From Amphiscolops sp. MND2022 (lineage: Eukaryota), in contig OZ076409.1 of assembly GCA_964187785.1 (NCBI GenBank), positions 52,206,001-52,270,000 on the forward strand: DNA of 64,000 bases, read 5' to 3'. The position numbers and the translations under genes were made by a program. The notes under the pieces are model-generated. The model ran no database searches. It was not told the DNA's origin and worked only from the letters and a program-made list of their open reading frames with translations. This document shows, in pieces, positions 4,946 through 63,197 of the stretch (position 1 is the first letter of the stretch; each line of letters starts with the position of its first letter).

Positions 4946-4960
4946 TGGTATGGAATCATA

Positions 4961-7900: not shown

Positions 7901-8490
7901 TTGGAGGAACGAATACCCCACAAGGCGTTAAACCCCAGAAGCAGAGCGTGCAGAACTTCCTTGAAAAAACCACATTTTCGAAATCGAAAAAGGCTCTGCA
8001 ACGCTGTTTGGGATTTTTAAACTACTACAGAAATCACGTCCCAAGACGGTCCGAACGCCTTGCCCCATTCTACAAGATGCTGAAAAGTGACGAAAAAGTC
8101 ATAGTTTTGAAAGAATTGGTTCAACAATTTAAAGAAATTAACAGAGCACTCGACAAATGTTGCGACTTGGCCCTACAGCAACCAATTCCAAACAAACAAA
8201 TCGCAGTAATGACAGATGCGAGTTTTGGTGCAGCTGGATATACAATCCTAACTGTAGATGATCCAAATCAGAAATTCACATCAATCCAAAGTCGTACGCG
8301 CCGGTCGCTTATGGTTCAAAAACTTTCACCCCAGCCCAGATGAAGATGTCCAACTACGCAAAACAATTTTTTGCGATTGATTTTTGCATTCTAAGAAATT
8401 GGGCATATTTTCTGGGATGCGCCGGAACCGGTCATTATACTAACTGACAATAAAGCCAACACTCGATTTCTCCAAACGAAAATCGTACCC
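4961..8490 (+). pseudogene. pol: Disrupted second copy of gag 3' half/protease continuing into RT-RNase H
   Basis: Repeats 2530-4945, then continues via ORFs 6158-7420 and 7702-8343 with RT and RNase H motifs homologous to pol at 56274-59360. Confidence 0.88.
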
Positions 8491-8499
8491 CTCTGGGAA

Positions 8500-40686: not shown

Positions 40687-41039
40687 TATTTTCTTTAACT
40701 AAGAAAATAACAATAAAATTCCCAAGTCAAATGTTCTTCATTTTTCCCTCTATTCTTGTCTTCGTGACAACAAACTCGCAGTTATTCGACTGAATAAAAA
40801 GTTAACCAACAAGGTTCTCCTATGGAATCATTAGGGAATTTTATCTTGAGCTGAACGCTCCAAAAAATCCAGCCCCTCGATTGAGATTTATCGTCTCTCT
40901 AAAGCATGCTATCGCGTCAAGACTTAGCAAATGCTAGTCAAAGTTAACTTACAACCTAACTAAAATTAAAATTAAAGTCTAAAATGCATGTAACCTCTTG
41001 AAATTTTAGAACCGAATCTTAAGTTCGAGTTTTCTGACA

Positions 41040-44000
41040 ATACTACACAAAAAAGCAACCTAGCTAAACGCTGGTTGAATAAGATTTTATTTTACTTAGA
41101 CTCGCAAGACGTCTTCAAAGTCTTGACGTTAGACAATCTTGTCTTCTTTTGACTCCTGATGATGAAGCCAAAAGAGCACAATCAAGAGCTAATGAAGAGA
41201 AGAAGGTCACCTTCACTAATGTCTACAACAAACGGAAGGGACCAGGATTTGGATCACAACAAAATTATCAGCCTTCACCAAGACCAAACTTCATGAATAA
41301 TCAGAGGACTAACCAACAGTCTAACCCAAAACTTCAACAGAGGAAGACCTAACGAAGGAAATCATCGAGATGATAACTGGAACCGAAATAACTCTCAGCA
41401 GTCGAACAAATTCAATACCTTCAATAACAACAACAATCACTCTTCAGGTAGTAGGTCGACTCCTACTAATACTAATTTACGAAGCAATACCTCCTATACT
41501 GGAAATAGACCAAATAGCCCGTATAACTTTAGTGCACGACCACAAAACTCAAGTTCTGAGTACAACCGGAACTTCCCAACCAACAACAACAGTTTCCCAA
41601 ACTCCGTACAGCTCATCGACGAAGAAGGACAGGACAGAGTTAGTACAATCTCGTTCAATCCTTTAAACTGCTAAAGTCTCCGCGACCAGACAAAGAAATT
41701 AACCTCGAATCACGATTTCACCTAAATCTCTTCTTGTTCCCCACCGAAGACTCCAGAAAAGATAGTGGGTTAGAAATTGAATTCATGCTGGACACAGGAG
41801 CAGCCTGTTCGATCATCAATTACAGAGCTTTCGAGGAAATTGCACAAACCGGACATCCCATCACGGTAGTCACAAGTAAACAATTGACTAAAATCTATAC
41901 TGGTGAGGTCATACCGATGCTAGGATCAACAAAAATCGCCTTCAGCTTCGACTCGGATGGACTCCATCCCGTAGAACTAAAGTTTTGGATAACAAAAGCG
42001 AAAACACCAAACTTGCTGGGAATAGATTTCCGCCTTCACTGCACAAAAAAGAAACTTAGCTAAACGCTGGTTGAATACGACTTTATTTTACTTAGAATCG
42101 CAAGACTTCTTCAAAGTTTTGACGGTAGACAATCTTGTCTCCTTTTGACTTAGCCACTGCTAGTCACATAAGTTAAATTCTTAAAGCACTACACCGAACC
42201 TTATGTTCGAGCAGCCTTTGTCAAGCCTGTATAAACACAAAACGTAGCTAAACGCTGGTTAATAACACCTTTACCTTACTTAGACTCGCAAGACTACTTC
42301 AAAGTCTTGACGTTAGACAATTTTGTCTCTTTCCGACTTAGCCACTGCTAGTCACATAAGTTAAACTCTTAAAGCACTGCACCGAACCTTATATTCGAGC
42401 AGCCTTTGGCAAGCCTGTCCAAACACAAAACTAGCTAAACACTGGTTAATAAGACCATTACCTTACTGAGACTCGCAAGACTTCTTCAAAGTCTTGACGT
42501 TTGACAATCTTGTCTCTTTTCGACTTGGCCACTGCTAGTCATACACATAAGTTAAACTCTTAAATTACTGCACCGAACATTACGTTCGAGCAGCCTTCGG
42601 CAAGCCTGTCGAAACACAAAACCTAGCTAAACGCTGGTTGATAAGTCCTTTACCTTACCGAGACTCGCAAGACTTCTTCAAAGTCTTGACGTTAGACAAT
42701 CTTGTCTTCTTTTGACTCCTGATGATGAAGCCAAAAGAGCACAATCAAGAGCTAATGAAGAGAAGAAGGTCACCTTCACTAATGTCTACAACAAACGGAA
42801 GGGACCAGGATTTGGATCACAACAAAATTATCAGCCTTCACCAAGACCAAACTTCATGAATAATCAGAGGACTAACCAACAGTCTAACCCAAAACTTCAA
42901 CAGAGGAAGACCTAACGAAGGAAATCATCGAGATGATAACTGGAACCGAAATAACTCTCAGCAGTCGAACAAATTCAATACCTTCAATAACAACAACAAT
43001 CACTCTTCAGGTAGTAGGTCGACTCCTACTAATACTAATTTACGAAGCAATACCTCCTATACTGGAAATAGACCAAATAGCCCGTATAACTTTAGTGCAC
43101 GACCACAAAACTCAAGTTCTGAGTACAACCGGAACTTCCCAACCAACAACAACAGTTTCCCAAACTCCGTACAGCTCATCGACGAAGAAGGACAGGACAG
43201 AGTTAGTACAATCTCGTTCAATCCTTTAAACTGCTAAAGTCTCCGCGACCAGACAAAGAAATTAACCTCGAATCACGATTTCACCTAAATCTCTTCTTGT
43301 TCCCCACCGAAGACTCCAGAAAAGATAGTGGGTTAGAAATTGAATTCATGCTGGACACAGGAGCAGCCTGTTCGATCATCAATTACAGAGCTTTCGAGGA
43401 AATTGCACAAACCGGACATCCCATCACGGTAGTCACAAGTAAACAATTGACTAAAACCTATACTGGTGAGGTCATACCGATGCTAGGATCAACAAAAATC
43501 GCCTTCAGCTTCGACTCGGATGGACTCCATCCCGTAGAACTAAAGTTTTGGATAACAAAAGCGAAAACACCAAACTTGCTGGGAATAGATTTCCGCCTTC
43601 ACTGCACAAAAAAGAAACTTAGCTAAACGCTGGTTGAATACGACTTTATTTTACTTAGAATCGCAAGACTTCTTCAAAGTTTTGACGGTAGACAATCTTG
43701 TCTCCTTTTGACTTAGCCACTGCTAGTCACATAAGTTAAATTCTTAAAGCACTACACCGAACCTTATGTTCGAGCAGCCTTTGTCAAGCCTGTCCAAACA
43801 CAAAACGTAGCTAAACGCTGGTTAATAACACCTTTACCTTACTTAGACTCGCAAGACTTCTTCAAAGTCTTGACGTTAGACAATTTTGTCTCTTTCCGAC
43901 TTAGCCACTGCTAGTCACATAAGTTAAACTCTTAAAGCACTGCACCGAACCTTATATTCGAGCAGCCTTTGGCAAGCCTGTCCAAACACAAAACTAGCTA

Positions 44001-47000
44001 AACACTGGTTAATAAGACCATTACCTTACTGAGACTCGCAAGACTTCTTCAAAGTCTTGACGTTTGACAATCTTGTCTCTTTTCGACTTGGCCACTGCTA
44101 GTCATACACATAAGTTAAACTCTTAAATTACTGCACCGAACATTACGTTCGAGCAGCCTTCGGCAAGCCTGTCGAAACACAAAACCTAGCTAAACGCTGG
44201 TTGATAAGTCCTTTACCTTACCGAGACTCGCAAGACATCTTCAAAGTCATGACGTTAGACAATCTTGTCCTCGACTTAGCAATTGCTGGTCATATAAGTA
44301 AAAATTTAATATTGAAACTCTTCAGCTTCTTATGAGCTAGAACTTCTGACAAATCTGTCACACCGTTGTCAAAAGACTTAGCAAAGAGAGACATTAAAAA
44401 GGTCGGAACAGACCAAAAAAATTTAATACGCGTTGTCCTAACAATGTGTTGAACGTATAAGGACTCAAAAATTTCTGTTTTTAGAGTATAAAAATAACTT
44501 ACCTGATTATCGCTACTTTAACCCATTGATGTATTTATATGGTGAATGTTAAAAAAGTCTGATATTTTTGATTGGATATTTATATCAATTTGGATGATCA
44601 TATTATTCTGTTTGTATTATATTCTTGCGTAATGTGTAAGAACGAACATTGTTGAAAATAATACTCAAACTAATTCAAATTCTTTTAATAAAATTAAATT
44701 CTTCTCTCGAAAGAAAGCTTTCCTTTTCCGACCGTCGTTGTGACACTAGAGACGAATACAGATATAGAACAACTGCAGAAAACAGGATGGCCAGATGAAG
44801 AAAATGCTGATAATGCAGCCAAAGCTGCACTGAACGCCCAAAGGAGACAAAAGTACATTGAATTTGCCGTCAGAGAACTAACGCCAAACAAACTCGAATT
44901 ACGGCTCACCAATACTTAATTGAACACCCCAACGCAACTTGGGAACAATTCCAGGAACACGTAACTAACAAATACCTTGTTTTTACTATCAGCGCACAGC
45001 TAGCCCGGAATTTCTCACAAAACCAAAAGACATTGATAAATGAACTACGAGAAGACATAAATGCAATGAAGAATATGCTAAAGAAACAACAAGTCAGTTC
45101 TTTAGCTGTAACTAATCCTTTACCCTATGGATGCTCATCCTCCCACTGTCATGACTATCACATCTCTGCAGTAGACGTAAATAAAACGTCCCGCCAAAAT
45201 ATCACACGATTTTGTAAATATTGCCAAAGGAATGGTCATACACTCCAATATTTCCGCGAAAAGATCTATGATGACGAAGCCAAAAGAGCACAATCAAGAG
45301 CTAATGAAGAGAAGAAGGTCACCTTCACTAATGACTACAACAAACGGAAGGGACCAGGATTTGGATCACAACAAAATTATCAGCCTTCACCAAGACCGAA
45401 CTTCATGAATAATCAGAGGACTAACCAACAGTCTAACCCAAAACTTCAACAGAGGAAGACCTAACGAAGGAAATCATCGAGATGATAACTGGAACCGAAA
45501 TAACTCTCAGCAGTCGGACAAATTCAATAACTTCAATAACAACGACAATCACTCTTCAGGTAGTAGGTCGACTCCTACTAATACTAATTTACGAAGCAAT
45601 ACCTCCTATACTGGAAATAGACCAAATAGCCCGTATAACTTCAGTGCACGACCACAAAACTCAAATTCTGTGTACAACCGGAACTTTCCAACCAACAACA
45701 ACAGTTTCCCAAACTCCGTACAGCTCATCCACGAAGAAGGACAGGACAGAGTTAGTACAATCTCGTTCAACCTTTTAAACTGCTAAAGTTTCCGCAACCA
45801 GACGAAGAAATTAACCTCGAGTCACGATTTCACCTAAATCTCTTCTTTTTCCCCGCCGGAGACTCCAAAAAAGATAGTGGGTTAGAAATTGAATTCATGC
45901 TGGACACAGGAGCAGCCTGTTCGATCATCAATTACAGAGCTTTCGAGGAAATTGCACAAATCGGACATCCCATCACGGTAGTCACAAGTAAACAATTGAC
46001 TAAAACCTATACTGGTGAGGTCATACCGATGCTAGGATCAACAAAAGTCGCCTTCAGCTTTGACTCGGATGGACTCCATCCCGTAAAACTAAAATTTTGG
46101 ATAACCGAAGCGAAAACACCAAACTTGCTGGGAATAGATTTCCGCCTTCACAAATACAGCACAAAAAAGAAACCTAGCTAAACGCTGGTTGAATAAGACT
46201 TTATTTTACTTAGAATCGCAAGACTTCTTCAAAGTCTTGACGGTAGACAATCTTGTCTCCTTTTGACTTAGCCACTGCTAGTCACATAAGTTAAACTCTT
46301 AAAGCACTGCACCGAGCCTTATGTTCGAGCAGCCTTTGTCAAGCCTGTCCAAACACAAAACGTAGCTAAACGCTGGTTAATAACACCTTTACCTTACTTA
46401 GACTCGCAAGACTTCTTCAAAGTCTTGACGTTAGACAATTTTGTCTCTTTCCGACTTAGCCACTGCTAGTCACATAAGTTAAACTCTTGAAGTACTGTGC
46501 CGAACCTTATGTTCGAGCAGCCTTTGGCAAGCCTGTCCGAACAAAAAACCTAGCTAAACGCTGGTTAATAAGACCTTTACTTTACTTAGACTTGCAAGAC
46601 TCTCTCGAAGTCTTGACGTTAGACAATCTTGTCCTCGACTTAGCAATTGCTGGTCATATAAGTTAAAATTTAATATTTAAACGCTTCAGCTTCTTATAAG
46701 CTAAAACTTCTGACAAATCTGTCACACCGTTGTAAAAAGCCTTAGCAAATCTCACTATTTTGTTGATAAAACTAAGAGACATTAAAAGGTCCGAACAAAC
46801 CAAAAATTTAATACGCGTTGTCCTAACAATTTGTTGAACGTATAAGGACTCAAAAATTTCTGTTTTTAGAGTATAAAAACAACTTACCTGATTATCGCTA
46901 CTTTAACCCATTGATGTATTTATATGGTGAATGTTAAAAAGTCTGATATTATTGATTGGATATTTATATCAATTTGGATGATCATATTATTCTCTTTGTA

Positions 47001-47100
47001 TTATATTCTTGCGTAATGTGTAAGAACGAACATTGTTGAATTTAATACTCAAACTAATTCAAATTCTTTTCCTAAAATTAAATTCTTCTCTCGAAACAAA
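41040..47100 (+). repeat. Higher-order tandem array: ~188-bp repeats interleaved with Gypsy gag-pro fragments
   Basis: 1563-bp period between ORF copies 41149/42712, 41370/42933 and 41734/43297; third copy at 45270-46150; block 44270-44715 repeated at 46635-47095. Confidence 0.9.
44717..46150 (+). pseudogene. Gypsy gag 3' part plus protease fragment (third family); shorter copies at 41157-42040 and 42720-43603
   Basis: Knuckle FCKYCQRNGH, N/Q-rich gag tail, TTTAAAC slippery site before the stop, protease EFMLDTGAACSII..NLLGIDF. Confidence 0.8.
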
Positions 47101-47426
47101 GTCCTTCCTGCGAAATCGGAAGACACAGAGACAACTTTTGTAATGTTTAGGAAGGCATAGTCGCAAGCTAACTCCTAAACACAACTGATTGAGAATCACC
47201 GAAAGCTAATTTTCCTGAACCCAATCGAACTTTTACACATGATATTGACCATGCATGAACTCGTTACTATTTTTTAACTTCTAATAATTACTTATCAATT
47301 ACCTAATTTTCTCTAATTATCTAATGAATTATTTGGAATAAATTTTATTATACTGACTTTAATTTTCTGATATGAGTTTTGATTGATATGAGTTGTCGCT
47401 TGATATGAGTTGTCGCTTGATATGAG

Positions 47427-48454
47427 TGTCGGAATGTGCATCAAGTTCATTTGATGTGGTAATGTTAGGGGCGTTCCCTTCTCTGTCATTAGAGGATGAC
47501 TTTTCATTAGACGATATTTTCTCGGTTAGAGCTAGAACTAGATTCGTCAGTTCACTTATTTGTCTGTTCATTTCCGTAAATCTCTGATTTACGGCTTGAC
47601 GTTCTGACTCGCCACTGAAATCCAACAGATTTCCATTGTCGAACTCGTTTATCTGTTCTCTCGTGAGAACTTCAGGGACACTACTTTCACTTTCGGTATC
47701 GCTATGTCGGTCAGGTCGGCACATGTGCGTTCGCTGGTTTTCTGCCACTTGAGATCTGGTATTGACCATTTCGAAGAGATATTGGGTTTTTGAGGTTTTA
47801 TTGAGTAATTGAGAGAATGGTTAAGCATTCTAGTGATGGAATTATATCAAACTGAGAGGTACGTATTTAGCAAACTGTTCGTCAAACTATCGCAAAATCT
47901 ACTGATGGTACAATTTCACTTGGTAGCAATTATGGCGACGTTGGTCACGTGACCACATCAACCAATCACATCGCTATTTTCGTTCGCACCTTTGTTAGTA
48001 ATCGCGCAATATTGTCGCAGCACCAAAATGAAATGTAGTTACGTTGCTATGGTTGCATGACTCAATTTGTATAATGATGTGGTTGCACTACTAGCATCAT
48101 ATATGTGAATGGTTAATGTATATAATTGTTTACAGGACTGACTGCACTGAAACGAAATCTGATGATGGCGTATCAGCCACATTACTTTCACTTCTAATTA
48201 AAATTCACGAAATTAATTTAAATGACATACGTAACTAATGTGTGAAATATGGGGGATAATAGTAAAGTTATTTAGGGACTGAATAGAAATGATTCTTTTT
48301 AGCAGATTCTAGTTCGAGTTTTATGATGTGGTTGACTTCACCACATTCTTTCCTTTCATCATCATCCTTTTACTGTTTGCATTTGTTTTGAGCTCAGGTA
48401 TGCAGGATGGTTGACCACATTCTTGTTTGATATTTTCATGCGTCAGGCATGACA
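47427..48454 (-). repeat. 3' LTR of element 4
   Basis: Direct repeat of 61331-62358; preceded on the minus strand by purine-rich AAAAAAAAAGACCCGGAG. Confidence 0.97.
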
Positions 48455-48472
48455 CTCCGGGTCTTTTTTTTT
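48455..48472 (-). promoter_or_regulatory. Polypurine tract (imperfect)
   Basis: Minus strand AAAAAAAAAGACCCGGAG abuts the TG of the 3' LTR. Confidence 0.6.
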
Positions 48473-49395
48473 GAAAGAGAACGTGTGGTTGGAATGGTGA
48501 ATTGTCTCGTTCGGTTGGTTGGAAGATCGGATGCGGCATGCTAGTTAGCAAAGTTGGAATTGCTGTATTCGTTAATTGGATTGAGTGCTCGTGTTGTTAT
48601 AGCGACCACATTAGTAGTGGCGAGTTGACTTTGTGGTTGGAAATAGACAGTGATGTTGTTATAGCAACCACATTGACAGCGGCGGATTGATTTCGTCAAT
48701 GTCGCAGGAAATTGTCGGTTTGATTACCGCTAGCTGCTAGTTCGTCTCGGTTCGGCAATCGAGAGGAAGAAAACTGAAAGTCGCGTGTTGACTGATCCAC
48801 TTCGGTAGAGAGTAAATGTAGAGTCGATGTGGCGAGAGTAGCCACGTCATCCAAGCGTGCGCGTTGTTTGCAGAGAGAGAGTTAGCGTAAGAATGAATTT
48901 GCCGGAAATCAATAACGTGGCAGCGTAATATAATTACTCGGCTTATTCGGGAACTGTTCGGAAGTAAGATGCAGTGGAAATGTCGTGCGCTTCGTAAACA
49001 AATCTTCGTCGATGCCAAAACCGAGAAACAAATCTTTCTCCATTATATTCATTGGTGCGATTCTTCAGCAGTTCAGTTCGGCCGCGGCTTACTGAGTGAA
49101 TGTATCAACTAAGCAAGTAGGCTATAGATAGGATAAGCCAGGGAGTCGTGTTGTGATTTTGACAAATTTTTCGGGTAGGTGTTGACCGTTTTAGAGGAAA
49201 TATTAGTAGACGGGTGACGGGAATTCGCTTGTCCCTTTGAAATTTTCGGGTAGTAACTTTGCATAGAGAATGTGGGTGATCAGGCCACATGATCCTTAGA
49301 AGTTAATTTGAATCTCAGTAAATCGCAAACGACTGTATGCTTCCAGATTGTTAGCCTTGATTTTATTCTTTTCAGACTTGCTTGTTATTGCCGTT

Positions 49396-52300
49396 ATGAG
49401 TTCAACGCCTCAAGTGGAGACGTCTCAGGCTGCGACTGATGTGGCTTCTGTTGTGTTAGCTGCGGAGGGAGTGTTCACTGAGTTGGCACAGTTAAGTTTT
49501 TCTTCGGTGGGCAGTGAATTAACAGCTGCTGTGGAGGAGACTCTGTCAGGAGAGCGTCTAGGAATTTGTTGCCGTTTCGCTGGGAAAGTGACTGCTGCCA
49601 ATAAAGAAGTAGCCAACACGTTATTAGAGATCGCTCTATCGAGTGAATTCCGTGAGTACCCTCAATTTCCAATATTTCGTTGTTCTTTTTCTTTTCGAAG
49701 TAGTAACCAGGGGAGGTTATCTTCCTTCAGAGCATCCTGAATTATGATATGCTAGTATGTGGTTTGCACGGTACTGGCATTGTGGCATGTACTTCCCGGG
49801 ATCAAATGCTCTGGGTAACTGATGTGGTAGCTAATTAGGCATTATTGTGCTTTTAGAAGAATTGTCACTCGTAGAGATTGTGAGTTTGCTCCGGAGACTG
49901 TTAGCTTCGAAACGGAGTATTGCTGCCAGTGGTGCTACTGAACTAACTGCTGTGGAGGATCGGCTCAGTTCTGTCCTCGGTGATGAGCGAGGTACGTAGT
50001 TGATTGTTATCCATTAGGTTGAATATACTTCCAGTCGTAGTTCACTGTTAGGATTGGCGGTATCTTGCATGTAGAATGGTGCACAGCATATGGTCAAAAT
50101 TAAGTTGTGTTGTAGGGACTGTTACAGGCTTGCCTGTAACCATTGCTGAGTTGGAGTCATCCTTTCAGCGGATGACGAAAGAATTGGCAGAGACTGTCAA
50201 AGCGATTATCGATTCCAAAATGGGCGGGCTGGGATCAGTCTGTGCGTTGTCCGTCGAGGAGTTCATCGGAAAGTTGAAAACAGCAATGGAGCACTTGGCT
50301 GCGTCTTCTGTGCCTGGTGGATCTGTCGAGCAAGCTGTGACAAGTGTGCCGTCAGTGCGGTTGGAAGCACCCGGGAGTCCTTTGGATGCCAGTAGTTCAC
50401 GATCTGTCAGCTTGAGTCAAGTGTCCGATGTTCCGACTGCTTTCGCTGGTGTCCGTTCAGTGGCTTCGAAAGAGGGGGGTATCTCCACATCCGCTACTGC
50501 TAAACCTGGTAAGAAATCTCAGAAGATCATGGGAGGGGTTTTAGTATTAGCACTTAGGTTAAGGATTACGATTTACGACACAAGTTTTTTTTTGGAGTTT
50601 GCTGTTTTCTATTGTAGGTCGCAATAAGAAGGTGAAGACGTTGAAGCCGGCCTATTTCGTTTCTGGTGTGGTGGGGACCTTTGTTGGTTTCCCACGACAT
50701 AAGCGCGTAGTCGACGGTTATGCCAGGTGCCTGTTGTGCAAAGTCGATCTCAGCATTGCCGGACGTGGTTTGTCTTCCTTGTGGGAGCATTGGCGGGGTG
50801 TAGAACATACCCGTGTGGAGCAGAAGTTTCGCATCATGATGCAGATGCCGTTACTTGATAAGGCCTGTCGGCGAGTGTCAGCAGAAGAAGACAGACGGAT
50901 TCGGCGAGCACGGATGTCTGAAGCGCCTGTGTTTTTGGAGTCAGAGCTGAGTCTCAGTGTTGATGAGAGGGTTGCCATTGAAGAGGCTGAAGCGGTTGCT
51001 GGAGGAAAACCTGTTTTGGGCGAGGAGAGCGTTTCAGTCTTGTGGTTGAGCCAATTTGTGAGCAGTTTCTGTAGTACTACAACATTCAGAGATGTGATGC
51101 AAATGGTGGAGTCGTGGCGGGACACCATGAATACGGAACTGCGAGTTGAGTGCCGCACCTTAACCTACACACGATGTCAGGTTTGTATCTACATAAGTTC
51201 ATGTCGATTTCTGTTTGTGTGTGATGAGGTCATCTAAGGGTTGTGGCTGTATGTTTGGGTGTGCAACTATGCGGCTATAGTTGAAATTGTGCAGAAAGAG
51301 GATGATTTTTTTATGTTTACAGAGTTTGGTTCACTATGGATTGTATCGGTTCGTCGTGGAGCAGTTAGATGAACTGATAGCTCGTGGTAAAGGCGCGAGT
51401 GTCAGTATCCGACGACATGAAGCAGATTGGTTGTGTGAGTGTCATGTGGTGTGCGACTACGCTGTGAAAACAATCGTTCTTGGTGTGGTGGTCGGCGGGA
51501 CCGGCTGGGAGAAGCGAATGCTCGATACTGTTGTTCCGGTGTTGTTGAGTCTGCCACATGCCTCTTCTATGAGAGCGTACAGCACGGAGTCAGATACCCG
51601 CATTGGATACGCGCTAGCAGCTTCAGTCGGGATCGTTGACCCTTTGGTTGTGGGTCGATTGACGCAAGTGTGGTTGTTTGACCTTGTTAGGAAGCACTTT
51701 CTTGCTGAGTTCGTGGGTCTGGATCCCCTCAGCGTTCTGGACTATTTGCGTGTTCGACTAGCCTCCGTGGTGCAGGAGAGAGTTCTGGATCGTTTGCCTC
51801 GTTTGAAACAAGTGAGTATTTTGAACTATACATGTATAGTATGTGGTATATCAAAGGACATTTGATCCAATTTTTTTTGGAGAGGAGTTGTTACTTTGCG
51901 GGGTCTACTTATTTTTCTTGCGTGGATGTTTCTTTTGTTGTTATAGTTTATACTAGTCGGAGGAAGTGATGTGGTTTCGTTGGCTGCTTTGTGTGCAGAA
52001 GTTGTCGAATACTGGAACGACCTTGCAGTCTATTTTGGAACTCATCGCCCCCATGTGACTTCTGAGTTGCGCCTGGTGACTCCGCTTGAGGGGCAGATAT
52101 TTGACGATGCCATGATGCGCCCTCGTTTTGCCGTTCTACGTTTCATTTTGGATTTGTGTTAGTATGGTTTTTTTGTAATTGAGTTCAGCTAGGATGTTGG
52201 TGGCTTTTGTCGACTTAAATCTTTATCCCCCCTTTTTTTTTCTAAATGGTACGTTCAAACTAATTATGAGCATGGGTTAACGTGTGTTGCGTTATGTTTA

Positions 52301-53658
52301 CAGTGGCCGAAACGTGTCCTCGATTGTGTAGGAGCAGCAGTGATAGTAACATGGTTGCTGAGCGTGAACTGTCACAATTCGTTCGGAGGCTGATGCGTTT
52401 AGTGTATCCTGAATCATTCATACCTGCTGAGTATGAAGTGGATTCTCTCCTGAAGCCAGTGGATCGCGATTTCTCTACAATAGACGAGAGTCTGTACCAA
52501 CTGCATTTTGGTCAGTCTTTCCGGTATGACGTTCGCACACAACTCCCGTTCTTCTACCGGTCAGTGCAGAAACTGTTGGGAGTGATATGCACAGAGCTTG
52601 TGGGGACGTGGCAATGTGGAGCTATTGACTACTTCAGTCTGACTCCTTTCGATCCACTGTTGGTGCATGGTGGGTCTGATGATCGCTGTATTGATGCTTT
52701 GGTCGGAACCTGTGCTACTCTTTCTCGTTATAATTTATTGAGCGACACCATAGCTGCGAATACCCTGAGACAATATCGGGAAGTGGCCCAATTTTTCAAA
52801 ACCAAGTGGACCTTGATTGAAGGCATGCCTGCAGTGGATGATGTAATCACGATGTGGTTCTCGTATCCTTTTTGGTCTCGATGTCAAGAGTTGTTGTCAG
52901 TGCTGAACCTATTGTTTGGACTTGCAGTTGTCGGAACTTACAACCCTAACTTCAGTGATGAGTTTGGTACTGCTATGTCTGTTGATACTCAGCGTTCTAG
53001 TCTGCATCTTGTCAGGAGTTGGTTTTCGAAGATGTTTGCGGGTCATACCCGTCAATCGCTCACTGGGTTACTACGTGTTTGTTCTACTAGTGATATGCAA
53101 GTGTCCCGATTAACAGATGAGGCGCGGTGCAGGCCTTGGGATCGGTTAATCAAATCAAGTCTGAGTGAAGCTCTCTCTTTGGGAAATGCTGTATTGTCCA
53201 ATGATCTAACTACTACCTCAACTGTGCCTATTGATGATTATCGATCGAATGTCTTGGCTCAATTGGATCTTGTGGAGGTATTGAGTCCCCCACGAGCTGG
53301 ACGGCGAAGCAGTCCCATTGGTGTCAGTAGTGCTGAGTCAAAAAAGAGTGCACGGAGGCAGATTGATGTGACCTTGGGCATTTGTGCGCCGTTTTCCGTT
53401 CAGACAGCCCCCAAGAAGAAGAGATCCGCCGTTAAGAATCCTAGAGGTGCGAGACGTTGTATGCCTTCAACTAGTCGTGGTGGTGTCCTTACGAGACAGT
53501 CAGTTGGGCGTAGAACAGGAGGGATTCCCCGAGGAACGAAACACTTGCAGTTAGCTAATGTTGTTGGCTCCGATGACGATTCAGCTAGTGAAGTAGTTGT
53601 GAGCGGGAGGAAACGACTGAGCCGTATTCACTTGGATTCGTCTGGATCAGGCAATTAA
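49396..53658 (+). CDS. 7-exon, 1133-aa gene antisense to gag-pol; BED-type zinc finger plus hAT-transposase-like body, apparently catalytically dead. Exons 49396-49651, 49857-49991, 50116-50508, 50618-51180, 51323-51811, 51947-52157, 52304-53658
   Basis: All six introns are GT-AG with pyrimidine-rich acceptors and matching phases (1,1,1,0,0,1); spliced CDS is 3402 nt with no internal stop. Finger motif ARCLLCKVDLSIAGRGLSSLWEHWRGVEH. The hAT assignment is by eye. Confidence 0.85.
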
Positions 53659-55230
53659 ATGTATGCGAACTTGTCTACCATGAAACTTATTTAGAAACTG
53701 TTATCTTTTCTGTTTGTTTTTTGGTCATAGTTCACTACAGTGAATTATTTGTGCTATTCCGATTCATTTTTGGTCAGTGTAGATTTGCTATTTGCTCGAT
53801 GTGATTTGATTATGTTACATTTTGATTTACATTTTTTGTGACGGCCTATGATTTGGTCTACATTTAGCTGATTGGTCGGCTAGTTTGCATGTTTTTCATG
53901 TGAATTTACATGTTGACTGTGTTATACTAATTTTTTGCGTGTGAATTTCGTTAACTGGTTTCAAAATGTTGGAGCGATAGGCTCAGCTTTGCAAGTCATT
54001 CAAGTTCTAGTAGAGTAGTCGCCTAGGTAACTACCATTGAAAAGCTCTCACTCACCAAAGGCCATTCTCGTCACAGCGTTGTTCATGATTATGGCTTACA
54101 TGTGACAGAGGTGGAAACTTGATGGGTGGGTGGAGTCGCTCAACTCCTACAGATGATTTGAACTTTTTGAGTAGCTGCTTTTATAGTGCTCTAGTTGGTT
54201 GTTTGACAGGTGTTTACTAACTTAAGTGTCAATTTAATCTGTCAATTCATGTCGAGTTTTACATATGTTTATTTCTCATGTAGCGTTATTCTTGACGTCG
54301 TCATCGTTGATGTGTGTCATGCGACGTCATCACTCGTGTCGTGTGTCAAGTGTTAACGTCAATTTTAATGGTAGATGGGTTTCCCCATGGCCATTAAACT
54401 TTTTGATAAGGGGTGGTGTGTACCATCCCTTGTTACGAATCTTCGGTGATGTAGTGAATATGACTGCATGTTTTTTGTTGTTCTGTCCTTCCTGCCGCGA
54501 GGCGAAGCCTACGAATCAACAGTAAGAACAAAAGTGTCGTGATCTAAATTCAATGTAGAGGTGACGACTGCATTTTACTGTCCTAGGAAATGTTTTATAT
54601 GTTGTTCGTTGGATTGGGAAGGTTATTTGCCGTCGCAAAAACCCATACAAAACTAGCACCGAATCCACTTGCTAAAAAGCAAGCTTCATCTGAATGTTTG
54701 CACAACCACACAGACGCGTTTTTGATGACGCACCCACACAGCCGAACCACATCATGATTTCAGAGGCGGAAGTGCGGGACTAGATTTTGGCGGTGTAACT
54801 TAACTAAGGCAGCTATCTCTTTTGCATGTTCGGTTGTGTGCTATTACTTTTGCTAAAATGGTTTATTTCTGTCGTCATAAGGTTGGTAAGTACAGAATTG
54901 CGAAGCAATTCCTTTGAAAGCGTGTGGTTGGGGTTTTCAGTGAATTGCATAATTTAGTCGCTCGATTGCATGTGTTTTACATGTACTTAATAATTTCCGG
55001 TTAACGTGATGTGTTGTGTATGACTGCATTACATGTAGTTACTTTTGCGCTCAGCTGTCTCGGTAGAGAGTAACAATTTACTCTGCCGGTAAACTCAAGT
55101 ATGTCGGATAGTGAGTATCAGTCGTCACTGAATGGCGTAAAATAGACTAAATAATTTAAAGGTATGATTGATGCATGTGGTGTTGTAGACTACATTCAGT
55201 TGAATGTGAAAATGAAATTTTAGGAAAATT

Positions 55231-58200
55231 TTACCAAAGGCTTGTTGATTTGCTTTGCATGAATTTTAAGAGTGCGGGCTTTGCTTGCAGTTCATGAACA
55301 AGAAAGTTGTCAAACGTTTTAGGCACGGGTGCCTCGCGAAGGCTGTATCGGGTAATGTTATTTCGTGTAATTGGTTGGGGTGTTTCGGCAGATGATGCGG
55401 TCGATTCCGCATCATTATTTGGATGGCTTTGTTGCTCAGGCAGTTGATCAGAAGACGGTGTGTCCATTTCATTTGATTGAATTTCAGCTTCAGATCGATG
55501 TGTACTGTCGGTGTGGACGGTCTCAGGTAGAGGGTTATCCAGAGGTGGTACCTCATGAACCCTTTTGTGTTCGTAATAGATTGCTCCATGCTCAGAGTCG
55601 ACTGTGTCAGTTTCATTTGTGTCTAGTTCTACTGTGTTTTCAGCGGGAGGTAGCGTTTCGGATGCAGGTAGATTATCGTTGAATATTGATTGATCGTCGA
55701 TTGCGTCAGGATCACTATAGTGTCGTGATGCATCGTCGTGTATGTCTTCGATGGAATCGTGTGGTACGAATGGGCGAAGCCGCATTCTATGTACGCACTG
55801 TGTTCGGAATGTACCAATTTTTCTGATGATATAGTTTGACTGTGACAGGACTTTAATTACCTTGTAAGGTCCTTCCCATTTGAAAGAATTGAAAGGGATT
55901 TTTTCGGATTGCTGGCCAATTTTGGGGTTCAGTAAAAAGACAAAGTCGTTTACTTTTAAAAGTGACGCTTGCGCTTTCCTGTCATAGTACGACTTGTATT
56001 TATGGAAAGCACGGATTATGTTGGTGTGTGTCTCTTTGAATTTCGCATTCAGGTTATCCACTAACGTCTTCGCGTCAACAGCGTTTCGAGGTGGATTGAG
56101 GGGGTTGCTGAACTTCAGATCTAGTGCATTATATGGTACTCGACCGTGGAAGACTTCAGTTGGAGAGCACTTCAGAGTCTGGTGGTAAGTCGTGTTATGT
56201 GCCATCACAGCGAGATTGACGTATCGGTCCCATTGTGGGCGGTCCACGGAAACGTTTATTTTCAGGACTTGTTTCAAGCGTTGATGTGATCTCTTGTTTG
56301 GGCATGTTTAATCGTTGCGTGGGAGACTTTGATCCCGGCTTTGTTCATCAGTTCAGTTATGACTTCGGACGTGAATGCAGAGCCTTTGTCGGTGATAATG
56401 TGTTTCGGTACATATGCATGTTTTGTGAAAATGTCTAGTAGAGCATTGACGACGGATTTCGTGTCAGGTTTGCGTATCAGGATAGCAAACAGATAACGTG
56501 AAAAATAGTCACAGGCCGTCATAATGTGTGAGTACCCATTAGATCGCGGCAACTCACCTACTAGATCGATTTCAAGAACATCCTCAGGACCGTTGCAGGG
56601 GTCATAAATTGGTTCGAGTGGAGGTATCAGAGTGTTTGGTTTTGCAGGTTTCGTTTTAATACATTCTTGGCAGTTGTTTACAAACTCTTGGACCTTTTCG
56701 GTTAAGTTTGGGACGTAGTACCTTTTCCTTAGTTCACTTAGCATTTTGGAAGCGCCAGGGTGTCCCTGCATGGGGTCGCCATGCATCGTCCTGATTATGG
56801 CTTCCGTAGTTTCTGGAGGAACTACATTTTGTCGGTAAGCTAGTTTTCCTACGTTGTCAAAAAACTGCCTGTACAACACGTTGTTCACTACTTCAAGTCT
56901 TTTACGGTTCTTGAAAAGTTTTTGGAAAAAGGTACTTGCAAAGTTCACTTGGTTCGGAGGGGTTTCCTGGACGGTAAGAATCCTAATTACACGTTGAACG
57001 TCACTGTTTTCGCCTTGAGCCTTAACAATTTCTGAAGTCCCCGAAGGGCATACCTGATTTACCATATGAACCTGGTTCCGTTGGTAGAATCGGGTGAAGA
57101 AAAGGGTCGGGTCGGAAGGTGTCACAAATGGTTGTATCTGGGACCTGATCTCACTGATGCGTCTATCGTACTGTTCCCCGTCTTCGTGGTGTTGCCGTGG
57201 GAACATTGCCAGTAGCGTTTGCATCGTCGGATTTGATGATGTGGTCACACCAGGTACATCGTGGTCTTCTGGGATGTACTCCTCCTCGTCATCGTCTTGT
57301 TTAGGCGTTTTGGATGCCAGGTCGATTTCAATTTTAAAGACTGGTATTTCGTCGTGGAGTTTGAGGTGGATCCTGTCTTTCGGTCTAATGTCAATTCTGG
57401 ACAGGTAGTCGGCTGCTGGGTTTTCGACGCCAGGTACATGGGCCAGGACGAAGTCGAATTGGAGGGCCTGGTCGCAGTAGTTCCACAGTTTCGGAGGAAT
57501 TCGCTTTGACTGGAAAAATCTTGTGAGGGCTTTGTTGTCAGTCATGACAATTGTTGGCTTCTTCACTCCCCACAAGATATGAGCGAATTCGTCGAAGGCG
57601 AAGTGCATGGCCAGGAACTCTTTTGCATACATCGTGAGTGACATCTGGCCCTCAGTAAACCTTTGTGAACCAAAGGATACTGGTGCGTATGACTTCGTTG
57701 GTCCATCATTCGTCTCGGTGTAATCCTCGATCAAGAGAACGTATCCAGCTGCATGCTCGCTAGCATCGCACATGATCACGAGCTGTTTGTCCGGAAGTGG
57801 TAGTCGCAGGGACATCTTGGCTGCATTTGCGAGGTTCTCATTGATGTCGAACATGGCATCTTTGTGGACTTGAGTTAGTTCGAATTTGACGTCTTTCTGC
57901 AGGAGTTTGTAGAGTGGTACAAGTTTTTCAGCTAGGCATGGGATGTATTGGCGGTAGAACTGGACGAATCCAATGTACCGTTGCAAGGACTTCACAGACG
58001 TTGGTAGTTTGATGTTTTTCAAGAACTTGTCAATTTTTTCCTCGATGGGAGCAACTCCCTTGGAGGTGATGCTTCGTCCCAGAAATTCTAACTCGGGGTG
58101 TCCGAAAGCGCATTTAGCCTTTGACAGTTTCAGGCCAGCTTGTCTGATTTTGATGAACACAGCCTCAATATTGTCGACGAGCTCTTCGACATTGTTGGCT

Positions 58201-60153
58201 GCAATGCCGATGTCGTCGACGTATTGGGCACATTTGTCAGCCTTGACCAAGGGGTCCAAGTACTCTCGAACAGTACTGTTGAAGGCTGAATGTGATCGGT
58301 TCAATCCTTGGGCTAGTCTGAGGTAGGCGAACGTCCTACTTCCAAAGTTGAAAGCGAGTAACTGGACTGACTGTTCGTCTGCCATCTGCAAGCAGTGATA
58401 TGCTTGTGAACAGTCCAGTTTGCAGAAGTATCGTTTTCCTGCCATGTGCTGCGCTGCATCTGCCATCGTCGTCACCGGATGATTGTGTTGATTGTAGTCG
58501 TTCTTCAGTAGGTGATTGATTCTTCTCAGATCTACGAGGATTCTAAGCTTCCCATTCGGCTTGCGTTGGGCGAAGATGGGTGATGAGTACTTGCTGTACG
58601 GCAATGTTGTGATTATGCCGTACTCCTGCATCAACGCCAATTCAACGAGTAAGTCGTCCTTCAGGTTCGTCGGTGTGGGTAAGCTTTGGGCATAGACTGG
58701 TTCGTCGTGTTTAGGAGTCAACTTTATCTTGAATTCGGTGTTGATTCCTATGTCCAGTCTATGTCTGGCGAAGATGTCATGGTACTTGACCAATAGATCC
58801 TCAATTTGTTGCTTCTCGTGAGGGTTCAGTATTGATTGTTCCCACTGGAAATTTGCCAGAAATTCATGCCGTTGTTCTTCGCTTGATGTTGGATCCAGTT
58901 TCTCCTCTGCCCTGAGTTTGACGATTTCGTCATAGATTCGTTTTTCAATCCTGTTGAGTTTTGATGGGTCGTCACAAGTCTCAGGGGTAGGGTACCATCG
59001 TCTATCTGATTTGGTAGTCGGATCCTGGAAGATTTGGTTCAAGACAGCTTCAGCATCATCTGGGTACTGTGAAATCAGGTGTAGTTGTTGATTGGTCATC
59101 GGTTGAAGGTTGTTAGCTTGCTTCGGTGTCATTATCTTGAATGATGCTACCGGTGTACCCACATTGATGGTGATTTGGTAGTCGAGTGGGTTTGTGATCT
59201 GGACATGAGTCCGCCCCTCCTGGGTCTCGCTGAGAGCCGGAGAAACCAACAGGTGTGAGCGTCTTTCGAACGCTGGTAGTCCTTCGACAGTGCCAGTGAT
59301 GTCACCTAGATCGCGTTCAATCACCACTGGGACGAACACTTGTTGGTTGGGTTGGATCACAGTCTTCTCGGTTGTCTTCAGTTCTAGTAGTTTGTTCTTG
59401 AATTTCCCGTTGACTGATCGCAGTTGGAGGGTGATGTTCGGGAATTTGACGATGTTGTTGGCCAGGTCTAGCGTAACGGAGTATTTTTGAAGAAAGACAT
59501 TCCTATAAGTACGTTCCCCATCGTCGGGAGGACCATGAATGTTTCTTCAAATATTTTGCCGCCGATGAAGAATCGAAGCAGGACTTGCTTCTTGACTGGG
59601 ACGATGTTTCCGTTGGCAATCTGCACTTTGAACTCCGGGGCAGGGAGTTCCTGGAGGAGGGCGGCTGGGTGGGCTGCAAGGATGCGGCGGAGTTCCGCTT
59701 CTGAGAGAGCACTCTGGATTGCTCCCGTGTCAAGTAGGCCGAAGTTTTCGTATTCTCGGAATTGGAGTGGTACGTAGAGCATCCTGTCCTTTTTATTGAG
59801 TTGGAGGGTGGCACTCAACTGGCGTATTTCGTACTTCGGCTTCTTCGGTTTTGTGGTTTTGGCGATGTGGTTCGTTTGTCATCATTTGGTTGGTCAGGCA
59901 GTGTGCATTCTGAACTCGGCTGTTGGATGTTGTGGACTTCGGGTCTTCGCTTGGTCTCCTTTGGTTTAATGGTGTAGTTGTCAGTTGAATGTCTTGTGAT
60001 GACAAAGTTAGTAGTCTCCTTAGTGTAAGTTGGAGGACGGGACTGCCACCCCGTATGGTTTCCAGTATGTAGTCGAGTCTGAGGAGTAGTTTGTTGGTGT
60101 TGGTTTAGTAGCGCACTTTTGTATGTTTGGGGAGGATGACGTGGCTTTAGAAG
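55231..60153 (-). pseudogene. pol: pol of element 4 (PR-RT-RNase H-IN-GPY/F) with three frame disruptions
   Basis: LLDTGA, QYVDDI, CDASEHAAG, H..GHPG..CQEC, IDLVG / CDYFSRY / ITDKG, WEGPYKV. Apparent 1-nt losses in A-runs at ~59850 and ~59486, and a small frameshifting deletion at ~56293. Confidence 0.92.
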
Positions 60154-61673
60154 TTTTTTGGATCTTCTACGTCATCGTGTCGTTCTGTTTCCTCAGCATT
60201 TTCGGTGTCATCGTTGGGGTTGTGGGACATCTCATTGGCGTTGTAGACCCTGTTGTTGGTCTGTTTGAAGTCCCTTCTAAATTGTCGGTTTTCCTCGGTC
60301 GACTGCTTAGGATACGGGACGCTGCGGTAGGCTGATGTCGCCGTATTCCTATAGTAGCAATCTCGGGCGGAGTGTCCCACTTTGCCACAGATTTGGCATA
60401 CAAGTTTGGCGTTGTATTTCGGCCTGGTCTCTTGAGGTTGGGCTGGTTGTTGCTGGTTTTGGCCCTGGGGTTTGGTTGGTGCTTCTTCCCGGAGGCGTTT
60501 CCTGCATTCAGCCCACTTGTGACCATGTATTCCGCAGTGGCGACATTGGCCATCAAATTTTCGTTTTGTCTCCCTGGGTTGCTGGGTTTGGACGTTAGAT
60601 GTCTGAGGTGTGGTTACATTCGGCTGGGGTGCGCTTATCTGATTGAATGGTTGCGCATTGGTTGTGTTAGGAATGAGCTGCGCATATTGACATCTGCGCT
60701 GCACAAATGTCCTGATCTCCTCCATCGATGCATCGTGTTTACCTGCCATGGCCAAATCGTTTTGCATTTGGACTGGGAGTTTCGCAAATAGAAACGTCTC
60801 TGTAATATCACTGGACTTGTCCCCAAATGCCTGCTTTGCGACCTTTTTGAACTTGTTGAGGAAGTCATTGAAGGTCTCTGCTGTAGGGTCGTAGCGCATT
60901 TGGTCAAATTTGTATTTGGCCACTTCCTTCAAATCTTCTTTTGCGTATTCCTTCTTGAAGTAACGCAGTACTTGGGCCAGTGTCGTCTGGTTCGTTATTT
61001 TCAGCGACTGCCAAAATTCAATGGCATCGTCGCGTAACAGGCTCTGGAAATATGTCAGTTTCTGTTCTTCTGACAATTTGTGTTGGTGTGGCCTGAGGTG
61101 GTTGAGCAGCAGGTGCTCAAACTCGTTGTACTTTTCCCGGTTTCCGCGGAATAGTGGAACTTGTGTGTGCAATATTTTTGGATGTTGCACCGTGTCCGTC
61201 ATCGTGTCCCTCAGATGATGGATTTCAGTGACAATGTCATCGTACTGCTGGGCGGATGACTGAGGGTATTGTGAGGTGGATTGTCGTGGTGGGTTCGGTA
61301 GGTAGTTGGTCGTTGGAACTCCTGTCACCATGTCGGAACGTGCATCAAGTTCATTTGATATGGTAATGTTAGGGGCGTTCCCTTCTCTATCATTAGAGGA
61401 TGACTTTTCATTAGACGATATTTTCTCGGTTAGAGCTAGAACTAGATTCGTCAGTTCACTTATTTGTCTGTTCATTTCCGTAAATCTCTGATTTACGGCT
61501 TGACGTTCTGACTCGCCACTGAAATCCAACAGATTTCCATTGTCGAACTCGTTTATCTGTTCTCTCGTGAGAACTTCAGGGACACTACTTTCACTTTCGG
61601 TATCGCTATGTCGGTCAGGTCGGCACATGTGCGTTCGCTGGTTTTCTGCCACTTGAGATCTGGTATTGACCAT
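60147..61673 (-). CDS. gag: Gag polyprotein, 508 aa, two CCHC zinc knuckles
   Basis: Intact ORF; CRHCGIHGHKWAEC and CQICGKVGHSARDC; ends at the A-AAA-AAC slippery site. Confidence 0.95.
   Translation of the reverse strand: MVNTRSQVAENQRTHMCRPDRHSDTESESSVPEVLTREQINEFDNGNLLDFSGESERQAVNQRFTEMNRQISELTNLVLALTEKISSNEKSSSNDREGNAPNITISNELDARSDMVTGVPTTNYLPNPPRQSTSQYPQSSAQQYDDIVTEIHHLRDTMTDTVQHPKILHTQVPLFRGNREKYNEFEHLLLNHLRPHQHKLSEEQKLTYFQSLLRDDAIEFWQSLKITNQTTLAQVLRYFKKEYAKEDLKEVAKYKFDQMRYDPTAETFNDFLNKFKKVAKQAFGDKSSDITETFLFAKLPVQMQNDLAMAGKHDASMEEIRTFVQRRCQYAQLIPNTTNAQPFNQISAPQPNVTTPQTSNVQTQQPRETKRKFDGQCRHCGIHGHKWAECRKRLREEAPTKPQGQNQQQPAQPQETRPKYNAKLVCQICGKVGHSARDCYYRNTATSAYRSVPYPKQSTEENRQFRRDFKQTNNRVYNANEMSHNPNDDTENAEETERHDDVEDPKNF
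61317..61330 (-). promoter_or_regulatory. Primer-binding site of element 4
   Basis: TGGTGACAGGAGTT immediately after the 5' LTR CA; TGG complements the tRNA CCA end. Confidence 0.8.
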
Positions 61674-62358
61674 TTTGAAGAGATATTGGGTTTTTGAGGT
61701 TTTATTGAGTAATTGAGAGAATGGTAAAGTATTCTAGTGATGGAATTATATCAAACTGAGAGGTACGTATTTAGCAAACTGTTCGTCAAACTATCGCAAA
61801 ATCTACTGATGGTACAATTTCACTTGGTAGCAATTATGGCGACGTTGGTCACGTGACCACATCAACCAATCACATCGCTATTTTCGTTCGCACCTTTGTT
61901 AGTAATCGCGCAATATTGTCGCAGCACCAAAATGAAATGTAGTTACGTTGCTATGGTTGCATGACTCAATTTGTATAATGATGTGGTTGCACTACTAGCA
62001 TCATATATGTGAATGGTTAATGTGTATAATTGTTTACAGGACTGACTGCACTGAAACGAAATCTGATGATGGCGTATCAGCCACATTACTTTCACTTCTA
62101 ATTAAAATTCACGAAATTAATTTAAATGACATACGTAACTAATGTGTGAAATATGGGGGATAATAGTAAAGTTATTTAGGGACTGAATAGAAATGATGCT
62201 TTTTAGCATATTCTAGTTCGAGTTTTATGATGTGGTTGACTTCACCACATTCTTTCCTTTCATCATCATCCTTTTACTGTTTGCATTTGTTTTGAGCTCA
62301 GGTATGCAGGATGGTTGACCACATCCTTGTTTGATATTTTCATGCGTCAGGCATGACA
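61331..62358 (-). repeat. 5' LTR of element 4, containing the first 114 codons of gag
   Basis: Direct repeat of 47427-48454; gag ATG at 61673; AATAAA at ~61706-61701 on the minus strand. Confidence 0.97.
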
Positions 62359-63197
62359 ATGAGTTGTCGCCGTACGGTCCTAAATGGAAATGAGTTCGGC
62401 CATTGATCTCAAAGAATTCGGACACAAGATATCAAAACTCCAAAAAATCATAATTTCAATCATTGCGAAGTTCTTATCTAATTAAGTGTATTATCAGAGA
62501 ACGGTGGTTGACTATTTCGAAAATAAACGTTTGTGGCCTTTTTAGATTCCCAGTCTACTGCAACTTTTTACAGTAATAGAATAGAAATCATGTTGTGATA
62601 TGAACTCAAACTAATAAATTTCTGTATCAATCTGTGATGATAAAACGACCAATTTTGACATTGCATTGTGTCAAAAAAGCCAACAGTGGGGCCCTTTGGC
62701 CTCTTCTACGTTTGTAAACATGGAAAAGTTTAGTGTAGCGCGGGATTCTAAAATGCACACCTGCTTTCAGGTCCCTTTTCAAGTCCATACAACCTCTGTT
62801 CTGTAACCAAAGACTATGTTGCAATTTGTTTCCAACAATATGAATCCGGTCAGTCTAGTAATTTTAGGTGAGTGGCTTTTTGAGAAAAGGAATCCCGCTA
62901 AATTTAAATCTTTGTTCCCTTGAAGAAGTGAAGTGTTTAGAAAATTTTCAAAAACTGAAACAGGGTACCAAAAAAAACGTTAAATGGCAGCGTTTTGTTC
63001 CTAAAAAGCACGTAAATTATTGCATTGTTTGAAAAATAACCACCATTCATGGTTCCACGAATTTGCACGCGGCGCTGGATTGATAGAATTGATCATCTAG
63101 TGACTTTATGAAAACAAAATTAGAAACAATTCAAAACCGAGCTCTTTATCTATAATAGTTCACAGGACACTCGGAATTGAAAAAAAAACACATTTTT

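Follow-up and report, generated by a model that had tools for sequence, protein, structure and literature searches.

Extra genes of retrotransposons with long terminal repeats (LTRs) are usually single, intronless open reading frames (ORFs). Spliced antisense genes are known in human T-cell leukaemia virus type 1 (HTLV-1), in which HBZ has one intron, is initiated in the 3' LTR and encodes a bZIP protein. Here we describe a predicted gene of seven exons that is carried antisense to gag-pol by a Ty3/Gypsy LTR retrotransposon of Amphiscolops sp. MND2022. The window, i.e., the whole stretch of DNA analysed, comprises 64,000 nucleotides of contig OZ076409.1 (assembly GCA_964187785.1, positions 52,206,001 to 52,270,000 of the forward strand), and all coordinates count from its first letter. 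The accessory gene lies on the plus strand, between the integrase and the 3' LTR. In plant Ty3/Gypsy elements of the Tat lineage (Retand, Grande gene23, RIRE2), antisense ORFs termed aORF-3R or eORF are described between pol and the 3' LTR; they are ancient, and for their products a nuclear location or DNA binding has been predicted or shown (PMC7264820, PMC11963269, PMC4408406). The gene described here is like them in its antisense position between pol and the 3' LTR and in its presence in most copies of the family. For Grande, a promoter of its own has been reported for the antisense ORF. Unlike the plant ORFs, which encode Transposase_28 or plant-mobile-domain (PMD) proteins, this gene resides in an animal host, has six conserved introns and specifies a product of 1133 amino acids; Pfam gave no match to PF04195 or PMD at E ≤ 1 in any exon, nor in the homologues of exon 7. 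Seven Wnt-family matches (best E, 3e-45) mark the host as an animal. Introns of the plant antisense ORFs are not mentioned in the available portions of PMC7264820 and PMC11963269, and that of PMC4408406 mentions an intron solely for the sense intron of Ogre.

The gene can also be likened to HBZ and other retroviral antisense genes (PMC11963269, PMC10974842, as far as these texts were available). It differs from HBZ in its six introns, its likely internal promoter and its BED-like finger, and no bZIP domain was found in it by Pfam. The finger, of the type Cys-x2-Cys...His-x5-His, resembles that of ZBED and CGGBP1, which are hAT-derived BED-finger proteins, but the window sequence falls below the Pfam zf-BED model, the rest of the protein is an orphan and the gene is multicopy within a retrotransposon. 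Among animal LTR elements, Juno and Vesta of bdelloid rotifers have a third gene common to lineages, but the ORF3s there are of the env-like, GDSL, DEDDy and similar types, and in the available part of the source neither introns nor an opposite orientation is mentioned, "antisense" being used for small RNAs only (PMC5408684). A search of the full-text literature, which left most subscription journals and Repbase Reports outside its range, did not turn up any account of an LTR retrotransposon with an antisense gene that contains introns. Antisense accessory ORFs of LTR elements are thus known as a kind, and the multi-intron structure in an animal Gypsy clade appears to be new and is unusually elaborate. 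The known antisense genes (Retand, Grande, RIRE2, HTLV-1 HBZ) are functionally obscure or very simple in structure; the present one would indicate that complex genes of a cellular style can be kept stably by retrotransposons if they lie antisense. It may offer a natural system for the roles of accessory proteins, for introns as an aid to expression or to the evasion of silencing and for the recombination of modules between lineages.

Structure and conservation of the antisense gene

An earlier note on this DNA had proposed that six GT-AG introns of 205, 124, 109, 142, 135 and 146 nt join the plus-strand ORFs into one frame of 1133 codons. When the start (49396), the stop (53658) and the six intron lengths in their order were fixed, a combination search recovered this frame: 16 GT-AG combinations yield it, and the five listed ones are set apart solely by the positions of introns 3 and 6. 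The placement of these two introns in the earlier note could not be deduced from the lengths alone. The combination chosen here has the strongest splice signals, with GTRAGT-like donors at 6/6 introns and acceptors made up of a polypyrimidine run ending in YAG at 6/6, and is conserved in six of six divergent copies. Introns 3 and 6 were therefore moved to the better-supported predicted junctions 50508/50618 and 52157/52304, with their lengths kept (Table 1); placed at 50454/50564 and 52124/52271, they have weak signals. The 135-nt exon 2 of the earlier note, which is absent from its ORF track, is real: two divergent copies match its 44 codons at 70% and 67%, and the flanking AG and GT are retained. 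Since the shared variants are biased in codon position (24/18/67), dN/dS is 0.06 (both detailed below) and the GC content differs between exons (0.50) and introns (0.37), the gene model exceeds chance, and the observation of an antisense multi-exon gene is confirmed.

The genome searched was a 1.07-Gb assembly. With region 48455-55230 as the query, 23 of 1138 first-look candidates were scored, and the region was found in at least 29 places. At least 19 further copies have the gene at the same position (9 full-length copies at 98 to 99% identity and 10 of related subfamilies), and it was present in all 19 other copies examined. Subfamily A contains nine copies with 98 to 99% identity across LTR, gene and pol. 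The six copies of subfamily B match positions 48796-55419 at 95 to 98%, with an integrase at 78 to 80% and an LTR-proximal part that is unalignable, and the three copies of subfamily C match positions 48783-53963 at ~95% and the remainder at 65 to 81%. When the exon 4 protein was compared with the genome, 4862 first-look candidates were obtained, of which the 150 scored all reached E ≤ 6.3e-83, with 61 to 100% identity. Six divergent loci (L030 to L035) were fetched. In five of them (L031 to L035), the exons of the gene recur in unchanged order, seen from exon 1, 3 or 4 to exon 7, and downstream of them the opposite strand encodes integrase and pol; the sixth, L030, enters Ns after exon 6. The genome search with this query had been proposed in the earlier note, and the inference made there, a multi-exon accessory gene that is propagated by the lineage on its opposite strand, is supported by the same-position siblings, by five of the six divergent loci and by the purifying selection described below.

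The predicted exon borders are retained in divergent copies as well. In six divergent copies, the acceptor of exon 4 lies at the identical codon, as does the extended exon 6, GT donor included; the peptide RFAVLR..LD of the exon 6 extension is also conserved. For introns 1, 2, 4 and 5, GT and AG were found at conserved positions in the divergent loci, with the exception of one decayed acceptor in L034. In the alignment of exon 4 homologues, conservation begins at the acceptor and stops at ...CQ/V (CAG/GT) in nearly all rows, and nearly all of 27 database homologues retain the borders of this exon. Moreover, the 24 positions of the GT and AG dinucleotides were free of variants in 20 copies, whereas from the rates in introns one would expect ~4.5 (~3.3 private and ~1.1 shared ones; Poisson P0 = 0.012). 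The similarity of introns 4 and 5 in divergent loci was no higher than that of shuffled sequence, and their lengths ranged from 96 to 201 nt (intron 4) and from 124 to 219 nt (intron 5). We infer from the conserved GT-AG junctions that the accessory gene is spliced.

The variants of 20 copies were divided into those shared by at least two copies and those private to one copy. The shared variants comprised 67 synonymous, 41 non-synonymous and 1 stop variant and fell on the three codon positions as 24/18/67, whereas 144 synonymous, 298 non-synonymous and 17 stop variants were private. The synonymous excess of shared over private variants had a Fisher odds ratio of 3.49 (p = 1.1e-8), and the odds ratios in the shifted frames were 0.42 and 0.77. 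At greater depth, the ratio of non-synonymous to synonymous substitution rates (dN/dS) of exons 4 to 6, a check that the earlier note had suggested, was 0.059 against L030 (dS 1.44) and 0.061 against L031 (dS 2.4); in two further lineages, dS was saturated and pN was 0.20 and 0.26. Because of the bias of the shared variants and a dN/dS of about 0.06, the accessory reading frame is judged to be under purifying selection.

The ATG is preceded by a conserved non-coding block, a putative promoter or 5' untranslated region (5' UTR), with an identity of 150/170 to L030 (88%) and 146/170 to L031 (86%); exons 4 to 6 are less similar to these loci (79 and 73%, respectively). Within this block, a 20-nt imperfect palindrome is a candidate factor-binding site; it is kept at 19/20 positions in L033 and at 21/24 in L035, two loci yet more divergent than L030 and L031, ~80 to 125 nt ahead of their ATGs. 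At ~20 nt from the ATG lies a conserved polypyrimidine stretch with CAG at its end, which has the appearance of an acceptor, possibly that of an intron in the 5' UTR. Since the block is common to subfamilies whose LTR-proximal sequences are unrelated and cannot be aligned, the promoter is probably internal to the element. A 14-nt motif occurs twice upstream of the gene (49165-49178 and 49240-49253, 13/14 identical) and is found in L030 too.

Predicted protein product

The predicted product has 1133 amino acids, a mass of ~124 kDa and an isoelectric point of 7.9, and a clear membrane segment was not found in it. The part encoded by exons 1 to 3 is acidic, rich in Ser, Thr, Ala, Gly and Pro and fast evolving; identity in divergent copies is 30 to 52% for exon 3 versus 68 to 87% for exon 4. 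Exons 4 and 7 encode basic parts, with PKKKRS near the C terminus. A BED finger has the signature Cys-x2-Cys-xn-His-x3-5-His/Cys, and the Cys-x2-Cys-x16-His-x5-His of exon 4 agrees with it. Its residues C37, C40, H57 and H63 are conserved, both His in at least 90% of 28 rows and both Cys in most. In the ESM Atlas, which relies on a language model, the nearest clusters of exon 4 were CGGBP1-like and zf-BED, at 0.93; zf-BED (PF02892) matched 6 of 28 exon 4 homologues weakly (best E, 0.0061), and AlphaFold2 predicted a beta-beta-alpha element at the finger with low confidence. Therefore, the finger is described here as BED-like Cys2His2 and the product as a probable DNA-binding zinc-finger protein.

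The remaining ~800 residues outside the finger had no family match. Pfam detected no family at E ≤ 1 in the seven exon translations and only three single chance-level matches in the homologues of exon 7. Sequence profiles against the PDB gave 0 matches for exon 4 and only chance matches (E ≥ 0.85) for exon 7, for which the ESM Atlas had no usable match either. Exons 4 and 7 were also modelled separately. A comparison of structure with 48,161 chains by VIA-align gave a best Z of 5.3, and Hermes (8edg_A) was aligned over 167 residues with a Z of 4.9, values that are within noise for a low-confidence model; Foldseek against the PDB gave no match at E ≤ 0.001. The layout, in which an acidic N terminus is combined with a BED-like finger, a helical orphan domain and a basic tail that resembles a nuclear localization signal, would fit a nuclear DNA-binding regulator. 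The chances are even, in our estimate, that the product regulates the transcription or chromatin state of the element or tethers it for integration.

Protein databases contained 147 relatives of exon 7 at E ≤ 1e-3, 32 of them at E ≤ 1e-30, and 110 relatives of exon 4. All of those looked up were unnamed single-exon ORF calls from ENA assemblies, which may be of the same or related species, a point of relevance for annotation. Searches with exon 7 and with a profile of exon 4 found no longer, fused or annotated form of the protein, which is weak evidence, and the exon 4 profile found no confirmed relative in metagenome and viral contigs.

Origin and maintenance of the gene

The gene is very probably a selectively maintained accessory gene of a large Ty3/Gypsy clade in an animal genome, held antisense between integrase and 3' LTR. 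Its six introns read CT..AC along the minus-strand RNA of the element. Antisense introns are invisible to the spliceosome and are reverse transcribed with the rest of the RNA. The element copies itself via its minus-strand RNA with the antisense introns retained, and every new copy inherits the full exon-intron structure because these introns escape splicing. The gene itself may be transcribed from its own internal promoter, for which the conserved block with the palindrome is the candidate, and splicing would remove six introns, or perhaps seven, from the transcript, with polyadenylation close to the stop codon. A wider account is possible, although we would rather bet against it than for it as a whole: a clade with thousands of copies would propagate a six-intron antisense gene with its own promoter, as yet undescribed in animal LTR retrotransposons; the product would be a BED-finger regulator that the element needs; the module would have been swapped between pol lineages by recombination; and the introns would have been kept since a spliced mRNA is exported and expressed well and evades the silencing of intronless retroelement transcripts. 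If true, this account would link intron content to the conflict between transposon and host.

Several observations weigh against a selectively maintained gene. Splicing, promoter and translation are all deduced from the DNA, and the proposed function derives from a motif and weak leads. The window sequence has no Pfam zf-BED match even at E ≤ 10, the mean pLDDT (predicted local distance difference test) of the AlphaFold2 models was 52.3 for exon 7 and 47.6 for exon 4, too low for a fold assignment, and database searches, which are weak evidence here, did not find an annotated full-length protein. The pol of the window copy is broken, and hence this copy gives no evidence of current activity. 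The accessory frame is broken in 13 of 20 copies, the window's included in the count, and is open in the window and in 6 of the 19 others, as expected for decaying insertions. Finally, among close copies (≤5% divergence) exons were not clearly better conserved than introns; the density of shared variants was 0.032 in exons and 0.046 in introns. The contrast of exons and introns that the earlier note had asked for is visible at depth only, where the introns are randomised and the exons kept.

The last two observations are those expected if the captured gene were a non-functional passenger with a frame that is open in the window copy by luck, since 12 of the 19 other copies have stops or frameshifts. 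We consider this very improbable in view of the third-position bias of the shared variants (p = 1.1e-8 against private ones), the low dN/dS at saturated dS and the splice sites and exon borders retained across lineages. That the gene is a one-off nested insertion, or a transduced fragment of a host gene, foreign to the family, has practically no probability left: the region is at the same position in 19/19 other copies and in 5/6 divergent lineages, which rules it out. The earlier note had named an insertion with its own terminal inverted repeats as an outcome that would speak against a gene propagated by the lineage, but no such repeats surround the gene module; only three short internal inverted pairs were detected, none of them at the module borders.

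A conserved frame could also serve the sense RNA of the element or a minus-strand product rather than a spliced plus-strand mRNA. Indeed, 53901-55201 (91.6% identical to L033) and 49225-49395 are conserved without an ORF, and therefore cis-acting RNA or DNA elements exist in the region. However, the minus-strand frames opposite the gene are short (the longest has 148 amino acids), the periodicity follows the plus-strand frame exon by exon and switches frame at each predicted intron, and the introns are free to vary, so that we give this explanation only a very slight chance. A small chance is left for a captured hAT-type DNA transposase, with BED finger and catalytic core, that is still active, in which case the composite may also move as DNA. 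The BED-like finger would fit, and Hermes is among the structural rows with the longest alignments. The Z of 4.9 is within noise, however, the model is of low confidence, and Foldseek returned nothing; no exon has a Pfam hAT dimerisation or catalytic domain at E ≤ 1, the terminal inverted repeats are missing around the gene and the copies examined lie amid Gypsy parts. All in all, a gene maintained by selection on the antisense strand of the Gypsy clade is preferred.

Host element, mosaic histories and neighbouring repeats

The element is 14,932 bp long and lies on the minus strand of the window (Table 1). Its two LTRs of 1028 nt differ by 10 mismatches and 0 gaps (99.03% identity), have TG..CA ends and are flanked on both sides by the 5-bp duplication ATGAG; the earlier note had the gene between pol and the 3' LTR, inside LTRs of ~99% identity with a target-site duplication, and this holds. 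The minus strand encodes, in this order, gag with a CCHC knuckle, aspartic protease, reverse transcriptase (RT), RNase H and integrase, with Pfam matches to zf-CCHC, gag-asp_proteas, RVT_1 (328-490), RT_RNaseH (585-692), Integrase_H2C2 (909-967) and rve (986-1078). By this order, together with the LTRs and the duplication, it is a Ty3/Gypsy LTR retrotransposon (Metaviridae). The earlier note had called the gene intact, which is correct for the frame of the antisense gene but not for the gag-pol of the window copy. The latter is broken into five frames, and each of the four shifts from one ORF to the next runs in the -1 direction. The integrase core (56274-56307) has lost 13 nt, a frame-shifting deletion that is present in 0 of 20 other copies compared; in the divergent copy L034, protease and pol are in one frame, i.e., the protease-pol shift is absent there. 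Since its gag-pol frames are broken, the window copy is unlikely to be autonomous.

Table 1. Features of the element and of its antisense gene in the window
Feature	Position	Strand	Remarks
Target-site duplication ATGAG, left	47422..47426	.	flank comparison
3' LTR (element sense = minus), TG..CA	47427..48454	-	1028 nt, 99.03% to 61331-62358
Purine-rich run adjoining 3' LTR, polypurine-tract-like	48455..48472	-	putative, sequence in element sense
Conserved non-coding block before ATG, putative promoter/5' UTR	49225..49395	+	171 nt
Imperfect palindrome of 20 nt, candidate factor-binding site	49271..49290	+	within upstream block
Exon 1, ATG 49396, acidic, rich in Ser/Thr/Ala/Gly/Pro	49396..49651	+	
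Exon 2, 135 nt	49857..49991	+	
Exon 3, 3' end revised, donor TG/GTAAGA	50116..50508	+	
Exon 4, best-conserved exon, BED-like Cys-x2-Cys-x16-His-x5-His finger	50618..51180	+	
Exon 5	51323..51811	+	
Exon 6, 3' end revised, donor GT/GTTAGT	51947..52157	+	
Exon 7, helical orphan domain, basic tail with PKKKRS, TAA stop at 53656-53658	52304..53658	+	
ATTAAA overlapping stop codon, possible polyadenylation signal	53654..53659	+	putative
Non-coding spacer, gene 3' end to integrase	53901..55201	.	91.6% identical to L033
Integrase C-terminal ORF, other frame than pol in window copy	55231..56307	-	
pol ORF: RT, RNase H, zinc-binding domain and core of integrase	56274..59546	-	
Aspartic protease ORF	59468..59878	-	
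gag ORF, CCHC knuckle	60147..61673	-	ATG inside 5' LTR; frame crosses primer-binding site
Primer-binding-site position adjoining 5' LTR	61311..61330	-	putative
5' LTR	61331..62358	-	
Target-site duplication ATGAG, right	62359..62363	.	flank comparison

The histories of gene module and pol are incongruent, which suggests recombination between lineages. In subfamily B, the gene is ~97% identical but the integrase only 78 to 80%, and in L034, pol has 90% amino acid identity but the accessory exons have 45 to 68%. This pattern fits recombination by template switching when RNAs from different subfamilies are packaged together. The exons of L033 are ~60 to 70% identical versus 91.6% in the spacer between gene and integrase, in which no long ORF was found on either strand; recent recombination or a constrained cis element may account for the conservation of this spacer.

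Two arrangements of exon 4 were seen elsewhere in the genome. L032 has two tandem copies of this exon (1598-2203 and 3213-3806), ~70% identical to that of the window, pointing to an internal duplication in its accessory gene. In G000 (C1:55531842-55575635), five matches to exon 4 on the same strand are spaced by 10.4 to 11.6 kb and suggest a tandem array of elements from a related subfamily (67 to 71% identity).

A comparison of 60147-61733 with 47428-47829 concerned the start of gag: its ATG (61673) lies within the 5' LTR, and for this reason the first 134 residues are encoded a second time in the 3' LTR (96% identity). The insertion target is a 17-bp tandem repeat of 3.9 copies (47368-47431), which is why the likeness of the flanks extends past the 5-bp duplication. 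Neither an Rfam nor a tRNA scan of the 64-kb window gave a match. Fragments of other, only distantly related Gypsy elements in the window, at 2266-8496 (plus strand) and 13023-13508 (minus strand), contain gag, protease and pol at 21 to 41% identity, and the accessory gene is absent from them. The block at 41000-47100, just upstream of the element, is made up of long direct repeats, with units that recur at 1563 and 2549 nt and sub-repeats of 188 nt, and this block resembles a satellite or nested repeats.

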